From an uncultured Gammaproteobacteria bacterium (GTDB taxonomy: Bacteria; Patescibacteriota; Microgenomatia; Levybacterales; UBA12049): a stretch of 64,000 nucleotides of DNA. Positions 5,810 to 63,470 of the stretch are shown here, in pieces. The first letter of the stretch is position 1; each line of letters begins with the position of its first letter. The notes under the pieces were generated by a model. It was not told where the DNA came from and searched no databases. It saw only the letters and a program-made list of their open reading frames with translations. The position numbers were made by a program, and so were the translations under genes. The DNA is taken from positions 1,504 through 65,503 of the forward strand of contig CAZLZN010000005.1 of NCBI GenBank assembly GCA_964564035.1, read 5' to 3'.

Positions 5810-6031
5810 ATGAGTGAAACTCCAAAAGGACTTTATGCTGTTTTGCCTACATCATGGTTGATCAAAGCAGAAAAAGCACGAGCTAAGACGGCACATGAAG
5901 CTGATGTAGATACCGCAAAAAGGCTAAACTTAACCGGAAACAAAAGGTCTGATTTCTTTCGCGTTCGTAATTTAGAAGAAGCTGGAAGAATGCTTAGGCT
6001 TCAGGCAGTAATCGCCCGAAGAGGTTTCTGA
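5810..6031 (+). CDS. Small hypothetical protein (73 aa)
   Basis: Internal ATG of track ORF 5726-6031, preceded by GGGGTG. It is the only plus-strand ORF between minus-strand neighbours. Confidence 0.3.
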   Translation: MSETPKGLYAVLPTSWLIKAEKARAKTAHEADVDTAKRLNLTGNKRSDFFRVRNLEEAGRMLRLQAVIARRGF

Positions 6032-8617: not shown

Positions 8618-9217
8618 TTAGCGATTGTAGGGCAATCTTGGACGGAATTCTCCGGGACTACCTGCTACAGGCTCAGGACCTGGTCGATATGCCGGTGGTG
8701 TGAAACGCCCCGCCGGCAATGATGAACTATAAGCAAACAACTCTTCCAATGCTCGAGCGTAGCCTATTTCCCTAACCCTTGTACTACACTCATCAACTCT
8801 ATTCTTAATTTTCATTTGAATTTCATCATCGAGATTATTTGCTAAATCGGTAAGGCTTCTTCTTGTTTTAAGATCTGAAATATCTTTCCAAATAATTTCA
8901 CGCGTTATCTGGCAAGCTTTAAATACCTGTCTTGCAATTTTATTCTGAAAATCCAAATCAGGACTTCTAACTCCGTATATTACGGAAACAGCTATAGATG
9001 TATCTTTCATTTCGGTTAATAGACCCTGCCTTATAAGGCCAAGATCTACTCTTAATCGTCTTTTAGGAGATAGAGATTTATGGGCTTTTAGTTCATCCCC
9101 CTCCGGGTCAGCATATGCAAATGCCGGAATTTGGGCCTCCAAAGCATTAAAGCGATCAGCCCGGGTTCTTAACCTGGGTTCTGCTTTATTTTCCTTGTCA
9201 TGAAATCTTTCTACCAT
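8618..9217 (-). CDS. Hypothetical protein with a Pro-rich C-terminus
   Basis: 199-aa ORF with an extended -10 (TGCTATAAT) 6 nt upstream of its ATG. Confidence 0.5.
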   Translation of the reverse strand: MVERFHDKENKAEPRLRTRADRFNALEAQIPAFAYADPEGDELKAHKSLSPKRRLRVDLGLIRQGLLTEMKDTSIAVSVIYGVRSPDLDFQNKIARQVFKACQITREIIWKDISDLKTRRSLTDLANNLDDEIQMKIKNRVDECSTRVREIGYARALEELFAYSSSLPAGRFTPPAYRPGPEPVAGSPGEFRPRLPYNR

Positions 9218-9232
9218 ACAATTATTATAGCA

Positions 9233-9472
9233 TTATCTACTCAAGATACAAGCATGTGTAAGCGTTACGGACATTTTAGACATTTCATAGTTTGAAATAA
9301 GATAGTCCATCGGTGTGATTTTCCCGAGAGACTTGTGTATCTTCTGCGTTAAATAGAATATCAAGTATTCTAACAGATTATTATTAAACTGTACGGGGTC
9401 ATGGATGATATCAAGTTTGTTGTTTAAAAATTGATCTTGAAGGGTAAAAATACACCCAGGGGGTGTATTAGG
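9233..9472 (-). pseudogene. Remnant of a DDE (rve-type) integrase/transposase, C-terminal about 70 codons only
   Basis: An open frame with no usable start reads ...LQDQFLNNKLDIIHDPVQFNNNLLEYLIFYLTQKIHKSLGKITPMDYLISNYE...*. YLTQKIHKSLGKITP matches the Y-N-x-x-R-P-H-x-x-L-G-x-x-T-P end of rve domains. The frame is interrupted at the REP hairpin. Confidence 0.5.
9451..9467. repeat. REP-like palindrome a: TACACCC-AGG-GGGTGTA
   Basis: 7-bp inverted repeat read directly, lying 59 nt upstream of the RayT gene. Confidence 0.8.
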
Positions 9473-10203: not shown

Positions 10204-10219
10204 TCCCCGGGCGTCCTAC

Positions 10220-10243
10220 TTAATACACCCCCCGGGTGTACTT
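10220..10243. repeat. REP-like palindrome b: TTAATACACCCCCCGGGTGTACTT
   Basis: Identical over 24 nt to the copy at 11998-12021. It begins 17 nt after the RayT stop. Confidence 0.85.
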
Positions 10244-10439
10244 ACTCTCTCGGCCGTAGTCATAGCGCTAAATTACGACAAAGTCCTGCAATCAAAACTC
10301 CTCGATGCATTCCCGTCTTATGCAGTTTTTATCACAGATCTGGAGAGCAACCCCGCAGTTTTAGATCACCTCCAAAAACTCAAATAAATCTTGAAATACA
10401 CACATCATTGAAGCAAGTTCATATGATATAATTTTTTGA

Positions 10440-11882: not shown

Positions 11883-11997
11883 AATTAATACTCTCTGGTT
11901 GTAATTATAAACTCCGCATCTCATTATACTTGACAAAATACGAACATAATTAATTTGTACGCAACAAGTCAGGTAGCGATATGAATTTACTCTAAGA

Positions 11998-12021
11998 TTA
12001 ATACACCCCCCGGGTGTACTT
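11998..12021. repeat. REP-like palindrome d: TTAATACACCCCCCGGGTGTACTT
   Basis: Identical to 10220-10243. It sits 8 nt from the rarA stop. Confidence 0.85.
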
Positions 12022-12028
12022 TTTTCAC

Positions 12029-38374: not shown

Positions 38375-39091
38375 CTATGTTTGAATAGATGTTATTTTTG
38401 CCCTGCCGATGTGGACATAATCACCATAACCCGGCGGAGTATTATCGGGCCAAGTCTTAATAGTCTTTACTTCATCCAGATATTTCTCAAGTATCGGTAA
38501 GCGTTTTTCAAACGATGGTTTAAACTCATGCATAAGAACGTCGTTGTGAAGAATATCAACTGTCCATTCGGTTACACGGTCGGTACCTCCATTTTCGATG
38601 GTGGCGCGAATATATTCATATCCGAGTTTTGCCGCCGCTAATCTTCTATCTCTTTCACTGGAGTAATTATCAATATAGCTGTCGGAAATAATAACCAGTC
38701 CATTTGGTTTTGTCATAGATGCGATATTCGCAATTGCATGTTCTTGTAGTTCATAAGGAATGTGGTGAACAGATCCGGTGCAAACTACAGCATCAAATTT
38801 ATCCTTAGGCTGCCAAGATAGCACGTCTCCTCTTTCAAAAATTATTCCGCTTTGGTTTCGAAGTCCATGCGAAACATAGCGCTCATCAATATCAACTCCA
38901 TATAGTTTAAGATCCGGCCGCCGTTCCTTGATTTTGCCAAGCAGATATCCGGGACCGCTCATGACATCAATTAGTTTCGCGCCCGGCGCAGCACTGTCGC
39001 TGATGTGAGTGATCACAGTTTGCAGCGATTTTTTATAAGGCCAATATTCAAGCCCCTCTTCATATGTCTCAGGCGCTGGTAGTTCTTTCAT
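38375..39091 (-). CDS. Class I SAM-dependent methyltransferase
   Basis: Motif I-like LIDVMSGPGYL, then LYGVDIDERYV, FDAVVCTGSVHHIP and KPNGLVIISD. Confidence 0.8.
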   Translation of the reverse strand: MKELPAPETYEEGLEYWPYKKSLQTVITHISDSAAPGAKLIDVMSGPGYLLGKIKERRPDLKLYGVDIDERYVSHGLRNQSGIIFERGDVLSWQPKDKFDAVVCTGSVHHIPYELQEHAIANIASMTKPNGLVIISDSYIDNYSSERDRRLAAAKLGYEYIRATIENGGTDRVTEWTVDILHNDVLMHEFKPSFEKRLPILEKYLDEVKTIKTWPDNTPPGYGDYVHIGRAKITSIQT

Positions 39092-39191
39092 ATGCCAAAT
39101 TTATTATTATAAAGACATACATTATATCACCTCTGGAAGATTAGCCTTGCACGGTATTGCATATTATAGCGTCTTATAGTATAATTATTAA

Positions 39192-40178
39192 ATGGAAAAT
39201 GGCAGTCGAATAAATTTTAGATTAGAGTGTCCTGAGGATTTTCTTGATTCTCAATACCGAAGCAGAATTGCATTTTTAAATGATATGAGTCCTTCGTTCG
39301 TAGAGTCTGGGGAAGTACGTTTTCTTGCCCATGCTCATAGGCATTTTAGTGCGACCGAACCTAATCTGTTCAGGAAATATATTGGTGAAGATACACCGGA
39401 AAATGAACAAATGATACATCAGTTTGGTTTGCTGTCCGAAGGTTTATCCCGCAAGGACTCAGAATTATTAACATACGGATTACATGGGGCAAGTTATTTA
39501 CTGGGGTTATACAAATATTCTGCCGGCCTGGGCGAAGATCATAGTCCAAAAAAATCTCTCCTGGCAGGAGCCATGACCACTGCGACTATAAATGAATATA
39601 CAGCAATTACAGATCATGTTTTTCCCGGTTCCGAACATCATGTTCTTGACATTGACACTCGAAGTATCAGGCAGGTATGTAAAAGCGGTGCGGCCAGATT
39701 GACAGAAGGAGATTGTTTTCAAATGCCATATATAGATTCAAGTTTTGATATTGTTCAGTCTGATCATCTGATAAGTTATATATCTGATTCATCTCGAAAT
39801 AAAAGTTATGATGAAATATGTTCATCTTATTTTAAAAATGCAAATAGAGTACTAAAGCCTGGGGGAGCTTTAATAATGGTTGACAGGATAATGCCCGATA
39901 AATATTTACTCGAATATGAGATGGAATTAATTGAAGATGCTATTATGCATAATAAAGTAAGCAGAGGTGTTGCAAAAGTAACGAATGATTATCTGGATTG
40001 GTTTAAAGGTCGATTGGCGGGCGCCGGTTTTGAACAGGTTCAGTTCAGGCCCGGTTATATATTTCGATCAAGAAGAGACTTAGACCGTGCAATAATGCTG
40101 GGAAATACCTGGGATATAAATTCAAAAAATACACTCCAGACGGGGAATACATTTTTAACCCTGGCGAGGAAGATATAA
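39192..40178 (+). CDS. Methyltransferase-like protein with an unknown N-terminal domain and a degenerate motif I
   Basis: HVLDIDTRS lacks the GxG signature. FDIVQSDHLISYI and LKPGGALIMVD follow. A TATAAT lies 6 nt upstream of the ATG. Confidence 0.5.
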   Translation: MENGSRINFRLECPEDFLDSQYRSRIAFLNDMSPSFVESGEVRFLAHAHRHFSATEPNLFRKYIGEDTPENEQMIHQFGLLSEGLSRKDSELLTYGLHGASYLLGLYKYSAGLGEDHSPKKSLLAGAMTTATINEYTAITDHVFPGSEHHVLDIDTRSIRQVCKSGAARLTEGDCFQMPYIDSSFDIVQSDHLISYISDSSRNKSYDEICSSYFKNANRVLKPGGALIMVDRIMPDKYLLEYEMELIEDAIMHNKVSRGVAKVTNDYLDWFKGRLAGAGFEQVQFRPGYIFRSRRDLDRAIMLGNTWDINSKNTLQTGNTFLTLARKI

Positions 40179-40359
40179 ACTATTTAATACCTGTATAACT
40201 TCTCCTCCCGGGCGTGAAATCATTCTCGCATCCCCGCTCTCATACTATATGAATATCATAATTAAATACTTTTGCTAGATGCAGCGCTCAAGGCATTCTT
40301 GTATAAGCTCGAATGAGGTGATCATCTGGCGCCCCCGCCTTATCCGGCTCTTCTATTTT

Positions 40360-41352
40360 TTATAATTCAGGATTTTGGTCAGGATTGCCCAGAGCCTTTT
40401 GACAATCGATAACTGAATTTCTTAACTCACTTATCGATCTCGCTTCCATAATTACCTCCCTATATTTCCCCGCATCCGGAAAATTATTGATATAAATTTT
40501 GCAAAATTTTTTCAGGTTCGCGAAATTCTTATCTTTCCCCCAGGTTTTTTCAAACAGATCTATTTGCTCCAAATAAGTATCAATGCGTTCTTTGACACCG
40601 ATAATTTCTACCTTAAGTTCTCTATTAAAAATCCACGGGTTAGCAAAAATTCCTCGCCCTACCATAAAACCATCACATTTATATTTATTATATTTTTCCT
40701 CAATTTCGCTCCGCGATAAAATATCCCCATTTCCGACTATAAAAGTATGCGGCGCGATACTGTCTCTTAATTTAATTATTTCAGGCATTACTTCCCAGTG
40801 CGCCGGAACTTTCGATTTTTCAGCGACTGTTCGGAGGTGTATGCTTAGCGCGGCAATATCCTGCTCCAGCAAAAACCCCAGCCATTCACCTATCGTTTCT
40901 TTTTCAAATCCTATTCTTGTCTTAACACTGACAGGGAGTCCTTCCGAGCCCGACTTAACAGCTCTGATTATCTCACCGGCTAGTTTCATATTCTTTATCA
41001 GTTTCCCGCAACTGCCAATTTTGAGGACCGCACGGTCCGGACAGCCCATATTTATGTCTATTCCAGCAAATCCCAATTTTTTGATAAGCTTTGCTGATTT
41101 ATAATAATTTTCAGGATTAATTCCCCATATTTGCGCGACAATCGGATGTTCATTGACGTTGAATTTCAGGCTTGCCACGAGAGGCCCACGTCCGGCCGAT
41201 TGCAACCCCTCAACTGACGTAAATTCGGTAAAAAGCACATCCGGTTTGCCGATTTTTGTAATTATTTGTCTGAAAACAAAATCCGTCACCCCATCCATGG
41301 GAGCAAGCGCTGTAAATGGTTTCGGAAGTTCTTCCCAAAAAGATCTATTCAT
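40360..41352 (-). CDS. dus: tRNA-dihydrouridine synthase
   Basis: ALAPMDGVTDFVFRQI and GIDINMGCP. The start is taken at MNRSFWEEL (41352). The 38 upstream codons of the track ORF are read through a hairpin repeat. Confidence 0.85.
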   Translation of the reverse strand: MNRSFWEELPKPFTALAPMDGVTDFVFRQIITKIGKPDVLFTEFTSVEGLQSAGRGPLVASLKFNVNEHPIVAQIWGINPENYYKSAKLIKKLGFAGIDINMGCPDRAVLKIGSCGKLIKNMKLAGEIIRAVKSGSEGLPVSVKTRIGFEKETIGEWLGFLLEQDIAALSIHLRTVAEKSKVPAHWEVMPEIIKLRDSIAPHTFIVGNGDILSRSEIEEKYNKYKCDGFMVGRGIFANPWIFNRELKVEIIGVKERIDTYLEQIDLFEKTWGKDKNFANLKKFCKIYINNFPDAGKYREVIMEARSISELRNSVIDCQKALGNPDQNPEL

Positions 41353-41388
41353 GCCTCGATTATAACAAATACGACTAATGCATTTTTT

Positions 41389-41444
41389 GTCATCCTGAAC
41401 TTGTTTCAGGATCTTTTGAGATGCTGAAATGAATTCAGCATGAC
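41389..41444. repeat. Twin-hairpin element
   Basis: ATCCTGAA-cttgt-TTCAGGAT (41392-41412) and ATGCTGAA-atgaa-TTCAGCAT (41421-41441), bracketed by GTCAT...ATGAC. Confidence 0.7.
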
Positions 41445-41517
41445 ACTTTTTGCGTAACTCGTACAAATACGCTATTCCTCACGCCTTGAAAAATTCTAAT
41501 TATCTTAGATACGCGGT

Positions 41518-42171
41518 TCAATTCTTTTCAATATATTCGATTATTTTGGGGAAAGATTTTGTAAAATAATCAACTTCAACCGACTCAAAATCTGATTCTT
41601 TTCTTAGCCCGTTTTCCAGATAGGCTATAAAATGCAGTCCCGCTCCTTTGGCGCTAATCGCATCGCTAAGTGAATCCCCCACATATACAGATTCCCGCGG
41701 ATCAGTTTTAAATTCTGCTAAGATTTTATCAAAAACACGGGGATCAGGTTTCAAAAAATCCGAATTGTCGGCGTGATAAATCTTTTCAATATACTTATTC
41801 ACGTGGTGCTCCTCATTAAGCAAATGCTCAGCTTCCTGAAGTAATCTCGACGTTAAAATCGCCATTCTCAGCCCGTCTCTTTTTAGCGTCTTGAGAGTTT
41901 GGATTTTTTCATCAGTTATATGGTCAACCACTTTGTCTTTTACCAAATCAGGCATAAGTTCTTGATGTAGTCTCATAAATTCATCAGGATCAATGCCCGG
42001 TATTCTCTCCAGGATGGCCTTTTTAACCGGCTGTCCCCAATTTTTCTGGTGCGCTCTCCGGCTCATCGGCGCAAATCCCATTTTCTCGGCAATCTGATTT
42101 TCAACCCTGAAAAAAATCTCCTCCGTCATCGACAACGTATCATCAAAATCAAAAATTACAAGTTTTATCAT
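41518..42171 (-). CDS. HAD-superfamily hydrolase (phosphatase)
   Basis: Motif I VIFDFDDTL, motif II LTSR and motif IV YVGDSLSDAISAKGAGL. Confidence 0.85.
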   Translation of the reverse strand: MIKLVIFDFDDTLSMTEEIFFRVENQIAEKMGFAPMSRRAHQKNWGQPVKKAILERIPGIDPDEFMRLHQELMPDLVKDKVVDHITDEKIQTLKTLKRDGLRMAILTSRLLQEAEHLLNEEHHVNKYIEKIYHADNSDFLKPDPRVFDKILAEFKTDPRESVYVGDSLSDAISAKGAGLHFIAYLENGLRKESDFESVEVDYFTKSFPKIIEYIEKN

Positions 42172-42254
42172 AGCTTACATCTCCTATTATACCAATTAAT
42201 CGGTATTTTACTGCTTACAATTTAAGGATGATTTAGCTAGGCTTATAGGGTAAA

Positions 42255-42746
42255 TTAATAGTTTTCTACTGCCCCTTTTTTAACAGGTTTTGTCCTGCGG
42301 AGTAAAATTTCTTCCAAATATCTCGCTCTAACATTATCCTGTAAGTTGTCTTTGATTTCTATGCCCGCTTTACTAGCATCTTTAGCCCTGTCAATAATAG
42401 TCGCATAAGTTCGCAACGCGTACATTGTAGGCAAAAGCGATGATCCGTAAGATCCGGAAACAAACTGCTCGCGATAGCCTGGAAGCTTTAGTATAGTTTC
42501 TCGATAGCTGATCGCTCCATGCCCGTTATTAGTATGGTAAACTATTTCAATCGCTTGATACCCAGTCTGATGCCGTCCTGCATGAGTGCGGTTTTCTTCA
42601 GATCGGTCCGGTTTAAAAGATTCACTTACGCCGACTGATATGGTCTTCGCGCCAATTTTTTTCGCATCAGCTAAGAAGCTATCATAAGAAGTTCCTTCTG
42701 GATATTCATGGTTTAATCTTATTGAATGCAATTCTTTTGCTCTCAT
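42255..42746 (-). CDS. Hypothetical protein (163 aa)
   Basis: Intact ORF with no motif recognised. Confidence 0.45.
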   Translation of the reverse strand: MRAKELHSIRLNHEYPEGTSYDSFLADAKKIGAKTISVGVSESFKPDRSEENRTHAGRHQTGYQAIEIVYHTNNGHGAISYRETILKLPGYREQFVSGSYGSSLLPTMYALRTYATIIDRAKDASKAGIEIKDNLQDNVRARYLEEILLRRTKPVKKGAVENY

Positions 42747-43000
42747 AAAGAAAAATTATATCATGAATCTAGCAAAATACAATTGCTAGAGATTTAAGTA
42801 GCTTAATTGATGCGCGTTCCGGGGTTAAATCTTAATGAGCATGTTAGAGAATACTTATTGTTTTTGAAAATATAACTACGATCTTCTTTCTTCCCGAGTG
42901 CATGCTATGGTGAGTTCGATAAATTTAAATGTTACTATTAATTACACTTCAAAAAAGACATAAAGCTCGCTACGAGGAATCTTACTTATTTAATTATAGC

Positions 43001-43026
43001 TAAAAAGCCCGTCCCGCAAGACGGGA
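43001..43026 (-). terminator. Intrinsic terminator closing the tRNA-Gln transcription unit
   Basis: On the minus strand, CCCGTC-ttgcgg-GACGGG is followed by CTTTTT. Confidence 0.65.
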
Positions 43027-43058
43027 TAAAAATTGTGCTACTATACCTCGCTTGCAGG

Positions 43059-43245
43059 GCATTAGCCGAATTTTGTATCTACGGCTGGGAAGCTTGGATT
43101 CGAAGGATGTCAAACGTCCCGGGTCTGAACCTGCCTGCCGGCAAACAAACTTGTCTCCGCCAATGGCGGACAGGCAAAGTCCGTTTTCTCATTACCGGAG
43201 GCGAGACTGCGCCCTCGGCGCTGGCTACCATTATACGACTAATGC
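43059..43245 (-). other. GC-rich structured element derived from a tRNA-Gln copy (candidate ncRNA or decayed, insert-laden tRNA)
   Basis: It contains three ordered blocks near-identical to the adjacent tRNA-Gln: the D arm, the 5-prime half of the anticodon arm, and the T loop with 3-prime acceptor. Two GC-rich inserts separate them. The element is closed by GCATTAG/CTAATGC. Confidence 0.35.
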
Positions 43246-43249
43246 ATAC

Positions 43250-43322
43250 GGCTGGGAAGCCTGGATTCGAACCAGAATAAACGGATCCAAAGTCCGTTGT
43301 CCTACCATTAGACGACTTCCCA
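43250..43322 (-). tRNA. tRNA-Gln (anticodon UUG)
   Basis: Manual cloverleaf: TGGGAAG TC GTCT AATGGTA GGAC A ACGGA CTTTGGA TCCGT TTAT TCTGG TTCGAAT CCAGG CTTCCCA G CC. The U1-A72/G73 end resembles other bacterial tRNA-Gln. Confidence 0.85.
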
Positions 43323-43486
43323 GCCCTATGCACAATTTAAATGCTTAAATATTAAACCAATAATTAAATATTAAAAATACGTAACCGAACGAAAAAAACT
43401 TTAAACCTGAAAATATGAAATCACACCTGCCTTATTTTACTAAAATTGAAGCCAAATTCCAATAAGAGGAAAAACGAAGAAAAAAA

Positions 43487-44269
43487 TTACAGATCAAAAA
43501 AATCCCTGTACATCCTCACAAGCTCTCTCACAATCGCCCTCCCGTCACGCCTCGCTCCGTTCAGCATCTGATCCGCGCTTCTGACCTCGGCCCGCGCGTT
43601 CTCTAACGCAGTATCATCCGCCGCCTCATTTACCGGCCTCAAATTAAGCAAAGTGTTCTCAACAGCATTTATCCTGTTTCTGGCATCATCTATTTTTGCC
43701 CTCATATCCCGAAGCGTAGCCTCAAAACCCGTCACATTCTGTCCGCGTGCACGCGCCTCATTTATTGCCCTGTCAATGCGTTCCGCGCCCGTCTCAAGTT
43801 CCCTGATTTCCTCGCGAAGCTCATTTATATTTTCGAGCTGTCTGACAACACCGCTATACAAATCCTTTGCGTTCTCCTCGATATCATCTATTCTGTCCTC
43901 CAGCTCTTCAATTGTCGCCAGATCTCCCGCTCCCCTGATATCTCCCTCCAGAGCTCTGATTCTCGCGCTTTCGGCCTGAATATTTGCAATAAGTCTCCTT
44001 TTTTGCTCATCCGTCAGATCGGGATTGGTTGATATTTTATTAATAAGACTATTTAGATTAGTTTGGGTTTTGTTAATCCTTAAAAGCGCCCTTTGACGTC
44101 TGTCTTCAAGTCTTCGGCGTTCGCGGTCGACTTGGCGCTGTTCTGAGGAGATTGTCGGCGTTACCGATCTGGCCGGTGTAGGATTTGGTGTCGCTGTCTG
44201 TCCCGATACCGGAACTACAGATATATAAAATACAAATAATACTGACGCGATAATGTAGAAAATTTTCAT
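43487..44269 (-). CDS. Secreted coiled-coil protein, hypothetical
   Basis: Signal peptide MKIFYIIASVLFVFYISVVPVSG, then about 200 aa of heptad-rich R/E/L sequence. Confidence 0.5.
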   Translation of the reverse strand: MKIFYIIASVLFVFYISVVPVSGQTATPNPTPARSVTPTISSEQRQVDRERRRLEDRRQRALLRINKTQTNLNSLINKISTNPDLTDEQKRRLIANIQAESARIRALEGDIRGAGDLATIEELEDRIDDIEENAKDLYSGVVRQLENINELREEIRELETGAERIDRAINEARARGQNVTGFEATLRDMRAKIDDARNRINAVENTLLNLRPVNEAADDTALENARAEVRSADQMLNGARRDGRAIVRELVRMYRDFFDL

Positions 44270-44361
44270 ATAAATATTTAAACCGGGGCAGAAAAATGAT
44301 GAGCTAATATATAAATATAAATTTAAAATATAATATAACGAATGAAGCTTATTGTCAAGTT

Positions 44362-44748
44362 TTAACTTCCCTGAAGCTCCTGGAGATCCTGCTCAACAGG
44401 CTGAAAATCAGTGTCTATTGATTCATCAATATCTACGCTGTTTACTTCCTGTTCTTCAGGAGAGGACGTGACCGGTGTTGTCGGCGAAACCGCGGTATTT
44501 ATGGTGGCTGTCGGACTGATCTGGATATTTGCCTGATTGTTAGCCTGATTAAGAGGCAGACCCAGCAGTTCCTTATTTTGAATTACAAATATTGCTGCCC
44601 CAAATATAATTATCAAACCAATAATCAGAAACAAAAAGAATGGCGGTTTGCTTTTGGGCGCCGGTTGCTGCGATGCCTGTTGAGCTGCAGGGGTATTATC
44701 TGCTGTCTGCGGTGTTGGAATTGGCTGGTTGGGTTGAGTATTTTCCAT
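44362..44748 (-). CDS. Single-pass membrane protein with a Pro/Gln-rich N-terminus, hypothetical
   Basis: Transmembrane helix PFFLFLIIGLIIIFGAAIFVI and low-complexity flanks. The gene lies 2 nt downstream of 44751-45503. Confidence 0.45.
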   Translation of the reverse strand: MENTQPNQPIPTPQTADNTPAAQQASQQPAPKSKPPFFLFLIIGLIIIFGAAIFVIQNKELLGLPLNQANNQANIQISPTATINTAVSPTTPVTSSPEEQEVNSVDIDESIDTDFQPVEQDLQELQGS

Positions 44749-44750
44749 AA

Positions 44751-45503
44751 TTATTCTTTAGTTGCGGCATCTCTCCTCACGCCCGCATATGTTTTTGCAA
44801 CTTCCCTGACACTTTCCCTCGCCTCTTTAACTATTTCGGTAACAGCCTTTAGATCCTCGCGCAGTTTCTTGGTTGTTTCGGAGATTATTTTACCGGCTGT
44901 CTCCTCATCAGTAATCTGAGCCGTATATTCGCGCGCGGCCTGCTCCGCGATCTTGTCGCTGGCATCCGATATCGCCGTCTGAGCTTTATCAATTGCTGTC
45001 TCAATACTTGAAGTATTTACATTTTCCGTTTTCAGTGCCGCCGTCCTGGATGAATATTTATCCAACAGTTCACTAAGCCTCTCAAGAGATTTAGTTAATT
45101 GCTCTGTCCGTCTGTCATTTATCTTTTCCAGCCTCTCATCAACCCTCTGTGCGGCCAGTTTTTTTCTTTCACTTTTAAAAGCCTCCACTTTTGCTTTAAA
45201 TTCTTCTTTATTCCCCTCTACTTCTGTTCTATATTCCTGTTTTTGTACCTGTATCTTATTCCGCAGTTCCTCTACTTTTTGCTTATAAGCTTCTTTTTCA
45301 GCCTCTAATTTCTTTTTCATAGTCTCTGTTTGTTCCTGAAAATCTTTCTTTTTTTCCATCATAAGCTTTTTGGTTTCCTCAGTGTTTTGCGTACCTGTTA
45401 TTGAATTGGATTCTGAAGTCGTTACAGCAGTTTCCGCTGAGGCACTAAAAGGAACCAAAAAGAACGAAAATAATATTGCAGCTGCGATTGCGGTGTTTTT
45501 CAT
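44751..45503 (-). CDS. Secreted Lys/Glu-rich coiled-coil protein, hypothetical
   Basis: Signal peptide MKNTAIAAAILFSFFLVPFSASA, then a long charged helical sequence. Confidence 0.5.
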   Translation of the reverse strand: MKNTAIAAAILFSFFLVPFSASAETAVTTSESNSITGTQNTEETKKLMMEKKKDFQEQTETMKKKLEAEKEAYKQKVEELRNKIQVQKQEYRTEVEGNKEEFKAKVEAFKSERKKLAAQRVDERLEKINDRRTEQLTKSLERLSELLDKYSSRTAALKTENVNTSSIETAIDKAQTAISDASDKIAEQAAREYTAQITDEETAGKIISETTKKLREDLKAVTEIVKEARESVREVAKTYAGVRRDAATKE

Positions 45504-63299: not shown

Positions 63300-63470
63300 G
63301 ATTGCGCGCGTAGCGCAAGCCTAAAACTTAGAACAAAAGAAGATCTAAGAATTTTATTTTAACAAAAGGAGGTTTGGATTACAATGAGGCCAATATAAAT
63401 ATATTTTCCTTAATTCATGACCTGCCTTGCCGGCAAGCAGGTTCTAGATTATTGATTCTAAATATAACGC

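Follow-up and report, generated by a model that had tools for sequence, protein, structure and literature searches.

tRNA-like non-coding RNAs such as the bacterial Y-RNA-like YrlA, the tRNA-like domain of tmRNA and mascRNA keep a mimic of the acceptor and T arms, which is recognised by RNase P and modification enzymes, and they are conserved in many genomes. Prokaryotic tRNA gene fragments and pseudo-tRNAs beside intact genes result from element integration or from duplication (review PMC9897764), and the group I introns of Patescibacteria tRNA genes are full ribozymes, located mostly at position 35/36 of tRNA-Asn and tRNA-Asp and flanked by intact exons (PMC13011429). We have analysed a 187-nt GC-rich element that lies directly behind a tRNA-Gln(UUG) gene in a 64-kb stretch of DNA from an uncultured bacterium (64,000 nt of contig CAZLZN010000005.1, hereafter the window, whose positions are used throughout), part of a Patescibacteria chromosome (Microgenomates/Levybacteria-like). 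The explanation that we favour, with a probability of roughly 0.6, is that tRNA-Gln copies in decay, into which hairpins have been inserted, make up the element as a mosaic, which is located at a recombination-prone, hypervariable hot spot and carried passively.

It is the comparison with relatives that decides for a pseudogene mosaic. Orthologous loci were fetched through two anchors, RNase III and a 260-aa protein encoded upstream; the close relatives are present in Logan and NCBI sources only. The closest relative by flanking DNA, L019 (260-aa protein 91% identical, 81% nucleotide identity to the window), and a second one, L021, have a tRNA-Gln behind the same promoter-like sequence, and nothing similar to the element is found in either of them. 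In L022 (260-aa protein 88% identical, 75% nucleotide identity) the order is tRNA-Gln, a DUF6650 gene, a decayed copy 2 and a copy 3. Copy 2 is a decayed tRNA with the same trailer as the tRNA-Gln (AGGCTTCCCAGTCGTAATTACGAA versus AGGCTTCCCAGCCATAATTACGAA), and in copy 3 the body of a tRNA-Gln is interrupted by hairpins at three precise points, namely at 26/27, behind G36 and within the variable loop. With the hairpins in brackets it reads in full GGGGACAA(TTTATCCCGCCTTGCGGGA)CGGACTTTG(CCTGTCCGCCTATGGCGGA)GATCCGTTTA(CCTGCCTAAGCGGCAGGCAGG)CTCTGGTTCGAATTCAGACTTCCCAG, and in short form ACGGACTTTG(19-nt hairpin)GATCCGTTTA(21-nt hairpin)CTCTGGTTCGAATTCAGACTTCCCAG. Aligned with the element of the window, copy 3 scores 92, which none of 500 shuffles reaches, and an nhmmer search with the window core against L022 6716-6803 results in E = 1e-6 to 1.6e-7. 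Both units contain ACGGACTTTG, the hairpin H2 (CCTGTCCGCC-ATT-GGCGGAGA, at 43174-43154 (-) in the window), GGCAGGCAGG and, in a decayed trace, the 26/27 hairpin. The copy of the window is the more decayed, as TCCGT has become CAAGT, the following hairpin (H3) is without its loop and nothing is left of the 5' strand of the T stem; the anticodon stem and the T stem are both intact in L022, where they can still pair, and both broken in the window. As judged from these alignments, the core of the element is inherited from an older hairpin-bearing tRNA-Gln pseudogene, which is better preserved, at another place, in L022.

Since the L022 unit aligns both with the element and with the stretch that follows it (43057-43001), at least three tRNA-Gln-derived pieces would lie behind the working gene: one unit with D arm, core and TTCAGAC, a further 3' fragment in which CCGTA is included, and a 5' fragment with the terminator hairpin. 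The second of these, which holds the T loop, the 3' acceptor strand and CCGTA, is almost identical to the working gene. The third is a probable, weaker tRNA-Gln fragment: 43057-43001 contains the hairpin insertion TTTTTATCCCGTCTTGCGGGA of L022 copy 3 and, aligned with that copy, scores 53.5 (0 of 500 shuffles), whereas its 5' part matches the tRNA itself only weakly (24 of 500 shuffles reach the score), and its tRNA origin is the weakest claim among the three pieces. The coordinates of the features are collected in Table 1.

Table 1. Features of the tRNA-Gln locus in the window and the evidence on which each is placed.
Feature	Positions	Strand	Basis
Promoter-like TTGGAA-17-TAAAAT	43434..43462	(-)	Consensus scan; conservation of TTGG...TTTTAGTAAAAT(A/T)AGGC
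Leader/trailer helix, TGCATAGGGC (43332-43323) / GCCGTATGCA (43252-43243), one G.G mismatch	43243..43332	(-)	Inverted repeat I2 and minimum free energy fold
Functional tRNA-Gln(UUG)	43250..43322	(-)	ARAGORN and Rfam RF00005, 63.6 bits; same tRNA in L022
187-nt element, mosaic of tRNA-Gln-derived fragments and GC-rich hairpins	43059..43245	(-)	Sequence, alignments, folds
D-arm block AGTCGTATAATGGTAG	43225..43240	(-)	15/16 identical to tRNA
Insert 1, with hairpin GCGCC-GAG-GGCGC (43221-43209)	43186..43224	(-)	Fold and L022 copy 3 alignment
Core common with L022: AACGGACTTTG, H2, CAAGT, H3 remnant	43130..43185	(-)	nhmmer and alignments
TTCAGAC and second 3' tRNA fragment	43080..43129	(-)	Alignments, direct repeat D1
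3' strand CGGCTAATGC of the 10-bp closing helix, partner 43245-43236	43059..43068	(-)	Fold, inverted repeat I4
Probable third tRNA-Gln fragment CTGCAAGCGAGGTATAGTAGCACAA, hairpin TTTTTATCCCGTCTTGCGGGA and CGGGCTTTTT	43001..43057	(-)	Terminator scan; L022 copy 3 alignment

The element starts 6 nt past the tRNA-Gln, has a GC content of 54.5% against 39.9% for the window and holds three tRNA blocks that are colinear with the tRNA. This agrees with the second tRNA-Gln scaffold which a sequence-only reading of the same DNA had proposed from three blocks in tRNA order. Besides the D-arm block, these are the anticodon block GAAAACGGACTTTG at 43188-43175 (-), with 13 of 14 positions identical (direct repeat D5), and the T-loop block TTCGAATCCAAGCTTCCCAGCCGTA at 43104-43080 (-), with 24 of 25 positions identical to 43271-43247 of the tRNA, a match found in none of 100 shuffles. 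Identity to the tRNA is thus patchy, and the remainder is unrecognisable. The blocks are separated, as had been proposed, by two inserts, whose lengths are 39 nt (43224-43186) and 70 nt (43174-43105) rather than about 35 and 65 nt. The 3' part of insert 1, GTCTCGCCTCCGG, is a decayed homologue of the L022 hairpin TTTATCCCGCCTTGCGGG inserted at 26/27. In the core, AACGGACTTTG corresponds to the 5' strand of the anticodon arm with the UUG, and H2 is followed by the wrecked 3' anticodon strand (CAAGT) and by the H3 remnant TTTGCCGGCAGGCAGG (43145-43130). The sequence behind it appears to split into two fragments, as TTCAGAC matches the 3' T-stem strand and the acceptor start of an L022-type unit, and the second 3' fragment consists of GGGACGTTTGACATCC in decayed form, followed by TTCGAATCCAAGCTTCCCAGCCGTA, which is nearly perfect and contains CCGTA, the trailer of the working gene itself. 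The 3' edge of the element (43059-43068) also resembles a D arm and the tRNA leader of L022, AATTCGGCT.

These results bear on the argument, made from the sequence alone, that a dead duplicate should have lost structure and that the helices gained by this copy speak against one. In fact, the closing stem, the D-arm block and the GCGCC hairpin are absent from copy 3 of L022, the sole homologue found, and the hairpins of insert 2 were not gained here but inherited from the older unit, being more decayed in the window than in L022; L019 and L021 lack the element altogether. A pseudo-tRNA is the only one of the candidates named at that time which fits.

The element is no assembly artefact, since the intergenic region is found in its full length, with 100% identity, on four contigs that come from different sequencing runs. 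Runs that contain this strain include SRR32841056, SRR31850039, SRR27422804 and SRR32942134. On a fifth contig (L047), which derives from a variant with a 99%-identical neighbour protein, the element reads identically when compared by eye. Most short-read Logan contigs of the same strain (L001-L018, L047) break within the tRNA or the element. L047 itself is probably an assembly chimera joined at the conserved tRNA body, because its 5' acceptor strand TGCGGGA does not pair with CTTCCCA and its upstream gene differs.

We have further analysed whether the element is recognised as a tRNA or as a member of a described family. ARAGORN and Rfam agree on the canonical tRNA-Gln noticed in the sequence-only reading, and it is the sole tRNA called at the locus. 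The element received no tRNA or tmRNA call from ARAGORN, which found no tmRNA in the window. Rfam was run at gathering thresholds and at E <= 10 over the window locus (551-nt search) and over the L022 and L019 loci; in the window locus it gave for the element no tRNA or other family at E <= 10, only noise such as miRNA, opuB and SmY, and at the two other loci tRNA matches and noise only. The miRNA matches merely mirror the long helix around the working tRNA. This check, which the earlier reading had suggested, thus recognised no known family and no self-splicing intron, and the open reading frames (ORFs) that overlap the element have no Pfam match. A hammerhead or other small ribozyme in insert 1 (UAAUGAGAAAAC) was considered and rejected, as no core was seen by eye and Rfam gave no match.

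An insert-bearing or intron-containing tRNA-Gln, which would be spliced or processed to a second functional tRNA, had been among the proposals. The positions of the insertions, at loops or junctions (26/27, 36/37 and the variable loop), are in its favour, 36/37 being a known group I site in bacterial tRNAs and group I introns being frequent in Patescibacteria tRNA genes (PMC13011429). However, insert removal restores no cloverleaf, because the 5' acceptor, 3' D, 3' anticodon and 5' T strands are missing or mutated. The 5' acceptor strand of the element is GCATTAG where the tRNA has TGGGAAG, and pairing fails as well for the 3' strands of the D stem and of the anticodon stem (CAAGT) and for the 5' strand of the T stem (CATCC), so that the 7-bp acceptor, D, anticodon and T stems of a canonical tRNA are all lacking; the destruction of the T stem and of the acceptor pairing had been correctly noticed before. 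The inserts (39 and 70 nt in the window, 19 and 21 nt in L022) are far below the size of a group I intron with its P1-P9 catalytic core, which typically has 200 nt or more, the anticodon-loop insert at 36/37 is preceded by G36 and not by the U required at a group I 5' splice site, and no Intron_gpI or ribozyme match appears at E <= 10. On this comparison of sequences an insert-bearing tRNA is already refuted, and we leave it a negligible probability.

A number of observations weigh against a passively carried mosaic. The fold of the element is stable (minimum free energy, MFE, of -69.3 kcal/mol, z = -3.5 versus shuffles), and that of the L022 unit likewise (z = -3.2). Two of the three perfect GC-rich hairpins with a stem of at least 6 bp in the window fall in the tRNA-Gln locus. 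Between window and L022, ACGGACTTTGCCTGTCCGCC is identical at 20 of 20 positions, GGCGGAGA at 8 of 8 and CGGCAGGCAGG at 11 of 11; H2 outside its loop (18/18) and GGCAGGCAGG (11/11) are invariant, while the flanking, mostly coding DNA is 75% identical, and the sole difference in H2 is its loop, ATT in the window and TAT in L022. Such perfect conservation of blocks is not predicted by uniform neutral decay. Also, no integrase, recombinase or transposase is present among the 8 flanking ORFs scanned (38375-45503), and the homology comparison rests on one genome, L022, which cannot establish selection on the hairpins. Conservation of H2, ACGGACTTTG and GGCAGGCAGG may reflect a constraint on RNA or DNA, a unit younger than the split of the genomes, or gene conversion.

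Part of these observations would be explained by a functional tRNA-derived small RNA, made together with the tRNA-Gln and released by RNase P and RNase Z-type cuts, for example a protein-binding decoy or a stabilising 3' module. Such an RNA would account for H2 and GGCAGGCAGG being perfect between 75%-identical genomes while the H2 loop varies, and for the two fold z-scores. It would also suit the exact placement of the two L022 hairpins, one in the anticodon loop and one in the variable loop, with the anticodon stem and the T arm intact, and the one-sided T-stem changes in L022, which keep pairing. The GC-rich sequence in a 40% GC genome and the terminator scan, which shows no terminator between tRNA and element, point in the same direction. 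What argues against it is that window and L022 differ in architecture, with closing stem, D-arm block and insert-1 hairpin seen in the window only, and that the L022 unit has no 5' acceptor partner while the anticodon and T stems of the window are destroyed. Neither L019 nor L021 has the unit, and its place differs, at 6 nt from the tRNA in the window versus about 700 nt downstream of it, behind a gene, in L022. A covariation check, proposed earlier for a structured RNA, is negative for window versus L022, with no compensatory change in any helix of the unit and the shared helices either identical or decayed. In all, one partial homologue was found (L022), without the closing stem and without a covarying helix, next to no Rfam family and no further examples in three large collections. 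We consider a functional RNA of this kind rather unlikely.

The strength of the structural signal deserves the same attention. The hairpins GCGCC-GAG-GGCGC and TCCGCC-ATT-GGCGGA, both read off the sequence before, are found in the folds, the latter in insert 2, and the two z-scores stem mainly from such local GC-rich hairpins. The closing helix GCAUUAGUCG / CGGCUAAUGC is real and, with 10 bp including one G-U, longer than had been claimed; it is only marginally unusual, as an equally long helix occurs in about 3-5% of shuffled 3' flanks (p ~0.03-0.055). In the MFE structure of the whole transcript it is absent, its 5' strand not being paired with CGGCUAAUGC, and the neighbouring UAUGCA is used by the leader/trailer helix of the tRNA itself. 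Stable hairpins in general are spread all over the window.

The perfect blocks might also be read as a selected module, made of the 5' anticodon strand, H2, H3 and the T arm and belonging to a small Microgenomates clade. It could take the form of a tRNA-derived RNA co-transcribed with the tRNA-Gln or of a DNA recombination site of a cassette-like, hypervariable locus located behind a conserved promoter, and in either form selection would explain the perfect conservation of H2 and GGCAGGCAGG at 75% identity. We regard this as distinctly unlikely.

Insertion of palindromes similar to repetitive extragenic palindromes (REP) or to miniature inverted-repeat transposable elements (MITE) in a dead tRNA duplicate corresponds to the other half of the earlier pseudo-tRNA proposal, in which palindromic repeats had colonised the copy. 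Against this half, the insert sequences do not recur within the 64-kb window. Their best match, between the H3 remnant and a hairpin at 63420, had been noticed before and is indeed present (17 of 18 nt), but with E = 0.11 it is at chance level and is no evidence of a repeat family. Three perfect GC-rich hairpins in the window compare with a shuffle mean of 2.5, and the different hairpins of the element have no common sequence. In favour of such palindromes are a dispersed hairpin repeat of other sequence in the window, GTACACCC(N)GGGGGTGTA, in 3 copies, a Y1 transposase near the RNase III gene in L044, and H2-like hairpins in other phyla. The last were found by searching genome_contigs, a collection from which the genome of the window is missing, for TTTGCCTGTCCGCC-N3-8-GGCGGAG, which matched 16 times. 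No tRNA-Gln adjoins any of these matches, although in one case a tRNA-Ala lies at a distance of about 130 nt, and part of them are due to chance within coding sequence of GC-rich genomes; three represent a dispersed repeat, ...GGCCACGCTTTGCCTGTCCGCCTCTGGCGGAGGGGCGGGAATGAC..., of the Chlorobiales metagenome-assembled genome (MAG) JACMJS01 (L027, L036, L039). Colonisation by mobile palindromes appears to us very unlikely. Single copies of the H2 hairpin occur in WOR-3, Doudnabacteria, Komeilibacteria and Saccharibacteria MAGs. In viral_contigs there were no matches for the H2 junction or for a tRNA-Gln with an insertion after the anticodon, and a scan of metagenome_contigs for an insert-bearing tRNA-Gln gave one match, which is due to chance.

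A distinct set of observations relates to the site itself. Synteny with L022 and with L019 ends at the same base, 43416, about 18 nt downstream of the promoter-like site, and none of the DNA downstream of the tRNA-Gln in L022, L019 and L021 was found anywhere in the window. The leader, the tRNA flanks and all downstream genes vary among the genomes, which is like a fixed promoter with exchangeable cargo, and L026, which is more distant overall at 76% nucleotide identity, yet has its leader in common with the window. The mosaic pattern fits repeated recombination or exchange at this site. An integron-like cassette, suggested by a conserved promoter and variable cargo, was considered as well and stays speculation because no integrase is nearby.

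Site-specific integration would offer another origin, in which mobile elements with part of a tRNA-Gln entered the gene and thereby duplicated its 3' part (attL/attR), and direct repeats were left as scars when the islands were later lost or reduced. In agreement with this, the 25-nt direct repeat from the T loop to the trailer (24/25) lies at the classic crossover place and is what an attachment-type duplication of the tRNA 3' part looks like. In L022 the DUF6650 gene stands between AGGCTTCCCAGCCATAATTACGAA and AGGCTTCCCAGTCGTAATTACGAA, the DNA past the tRNA-Gln differs in all three genomes, and tRNA gene fragments from integrated elements are well documented (PMC9897764). However, the D arm and the 5' anticodon strand are also duplicated, which integration at the 3' end does not do; just 142 nt separate the repeats in the window, with no island in between and none of the recombinases sought in the flanking ORFs; and the variability begins upstream of the tRNA (43416) and not within it. 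Integration scars are, in our opinion, unlikely. The copies in the mosaic may stem from tandem duplication, from repair by microhomology or fold-back, from gene conversion by the working gene or from integration that left scars, and the patchy identity would be better explained by tandem duplication with microhomology or fold-back repair and gene conversion than by integration.

On the mosaic reading, transcription would start at the conserved promoter (43462-43434), proceed through the tRNA-Gln and the fragments and end at the terminator (43025-43001); RNase P would remove the 5' leader, and, as the gene encodes no CCA, an RNase Z-type enzyme would cut behind G73 and free a trailer of about 250 nt, which would then be degraded. 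The terminator would be the sole part with a likely role. It was also described in the sequence-only reading and is found by the scan, which predicts an intrinsic terminator at 43025-43001 on the basis of a hairpin (43025-43008) with a 7-bp stem (5 G-C pairs) and a 4-nt loop, followed by CTTTTT. The 26/27 hairpin is intact in 43057-43001 and it is this hairpin which, together with CGGGCTTTTT, makes the terminator.

The working tRNA-Gln has U1-A72 and G73, and that of L022 shows zero differences from it in alignment A1 (98.8% over 82 nt including the flanks). The promoter-like site upstream is the likely start of the transcription unit, as suggested by its sequence; TTGG...TTTTAGTAAAAT(A/T)AGGC is kept in 5 genomes, among them L021, whose RNase III is just 77% identical. 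The leader/trailer helix adds about 10 bp to the acceptor stem of the working tRNA, with the G.G mismatch at -4/76 (inverted repeat I2 is 17 nt counting the acceptor stem, 94% complementary), and it is contained in the whole-transcript MFE structure. L022 has a helix of other sequence at the same place (5872-5890 / 5958-5976; CGTAATTAGGGC / GCCATAATTACG), and between the two genomes there are 3 consecutive double compensatory changes with an identical mismatch position. No such helix is present at the tRNA-Gln of L019 or L021 or at the tRNA-Val of the window. It may be a processing signal, an RNase III gene lying 2 kb upstream, or represent inverted repeats from cassette exchange.

A second promoter-like match, TTCCCA-17-TATAAT, is present at 43258-43230 (-) and consists of a consensus match alone; its TTCCCA lies in the 3' acceptor strand of the tRNA, and the TATAAT of the D-arm block results from a C-to-A change relative to the tRNA. 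A transcript begun there would be without the 5' strand of the closing helix.

The genes upstream of the element encode RecG, L32, NusB, RNase III and three small proteins, followed by the tRNA-Gln, and past the tRNA-Gln there are an orphan 163-aa ORF, a HAD hydrolase and Dus; all of these lie on the (-) strand. The three small proteins have no significant Pfam family. The best named relatives of the RNase III belong to Patescibacteria/Levybacteria. More distant RNase III relatives (L020, L044-L046) were rejected as orthologous loci, as they have another synteny and no tRNA-Gln nearby, and the 163-aa downstream neighbour was discarded as a synteny anchor, being an orphan whose only match is its own 99% variant on contig L047. 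The Dus ORF, as mechanically listed, is 38 codons too long relative to the proposed start at 41352.

In L019, a small GIY-YIG (URI-type) nuclease gene lies between promoter and tRNA-Gln (8850-9102) and appears to be frameshifted, as judged from its reading frames, and the acceptor stem of the tRNA-Gln is TGCCGAG, compared with TGGGAAG in the window; this hints that a nuclease may drive the turnover of the tRNA cassette. Behind this tRNA-Gln and upstream of a DUF6157 gene, a stretch of about 200 nt (L019 9178-9377) looks structured by eye, with parts that seem paired such as GATGGGGCTTGCTAAAAGCCCCATC; it has no Rfam match above noise and could be an undescribed leader. The only sub-threshold match, SpF41 (35.6 bits, gathering threshold 52), covers the L019 tRNA at 9101-9210.

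Further repeats were noted in the window. An exact second copy of the 15-mer ATGCATTAGTCGTAT, which stands at the 5' edge of the element, is located at 41369-41383 (-), upstream of Dus and just ahead of TTGTTATAAT and the likely start of Dus; about 0.2 such recurrences are expected with 2 mismatches allowed, and local BLAST gives E 0.027 for the exact 15-mer. The second copy follows a double-hairpin sequence (41390-41466 (-)) with the spurious translation ...HAEFISASQKILKQVQDDK, which we take to resemble a repeat-derived peptide pattern in other MAG annotations. The copies of the dispersed hairpin repeat, (A)GTACACCC(N)GGGGGTGTATTA, are located at 9443-9470 (+), 10217-10244 (-) and 11995-12022 (-) in an AT-rich stretch (34-35% GC); judged by sequence, this three-copy family looks like a small REP-like or terminator-like repeat, and it is unrelated to the hairpins of the element. 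The palindrome that shares 17 of 18 nt, at chance level, with the H3 remnant is CCTGCTTGCCGGCAAGGCAGG (63417-63444). It is separated from the tRNA-Val downstream of it by about 120 nt, and the tRNA-Val is immediately preceded by a hairpin, TTGCGC-TACGC-GCGCAA (63300-63320 (-)).

If the mosaic reading is true, the locus exemplifies how tRNA genes of the reduced Patescibacteria genomes gather broken copies at recombination hot spots, and how GC-rich wreckage with a good fold z-score can mimic a structured RNA. It would also mean that part of the tRNA wreckage can be reused as a terminator, and it would call for caution when AT-rich genomes are screened for non-coding RNA by GC content and folding energy. 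If instead the conserved hairpins are selected, the locus would point to a so far undescribed tRNA-derived module or to a site of cassette exchange that follows a fixed promoter in the Candidate Phyla Radiation (CPR).

In respect to the known systems, the element resembles YrlA, tmRNA and mascRNA in combining a tRNA-derived scaffold with extra helices and, as it adjoins a tRNA gene, in the possibility of release by tRNA processing. In contrast to them it has neither the acceptor/T-arm mimic nor broad conservation, the comparison having been made through Rfam and ARAGORN only. With the group I introns it has in common the phylum and the presence of extra sequence in or near the anticodon loop, which defeats tRNA finders; unlike them, its insertions are hairpins of 19-70 nt without an Intron_gpI match, and its would-be exons form no tRNA. 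The terminator is similar to other intrinsic terminators in having a GC-rich hairpin and then a T run that ends the unit, and differs in that ACGGACTTTG, the tRNA-like block of the L022 unit, can be aligned with its 3' strand and T run. On account of this alignment it looks as if it was recycled from a tRNA fragment, or fused to one through microhomology.

The closest likeness is to the tRNA gene fragments reviewed in PMC9897764, as partial dead copies adjoin an intact gene, a direct repeat extends from T loop to trailer, and a synteny break is followed by different cargo in each relative, with a gene between an intact and a decayed copy in L022. Here, however, 5' parts of the tRNA are duplicated too, there is no integrase, the repeats are about 140 nt apart, and GC-rich hairpins have been inserted precisely, two of them common to two genomes. 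The element is therefore a new example of a kind that is already known, that of tRNA gene fragments or pseudogenes beside a tRNA gene, in which the unusual details are the hairpin insertions at loop positions, a terminator seemingly recycled from a tRNA fragment and a covarying leader/trailer helix.

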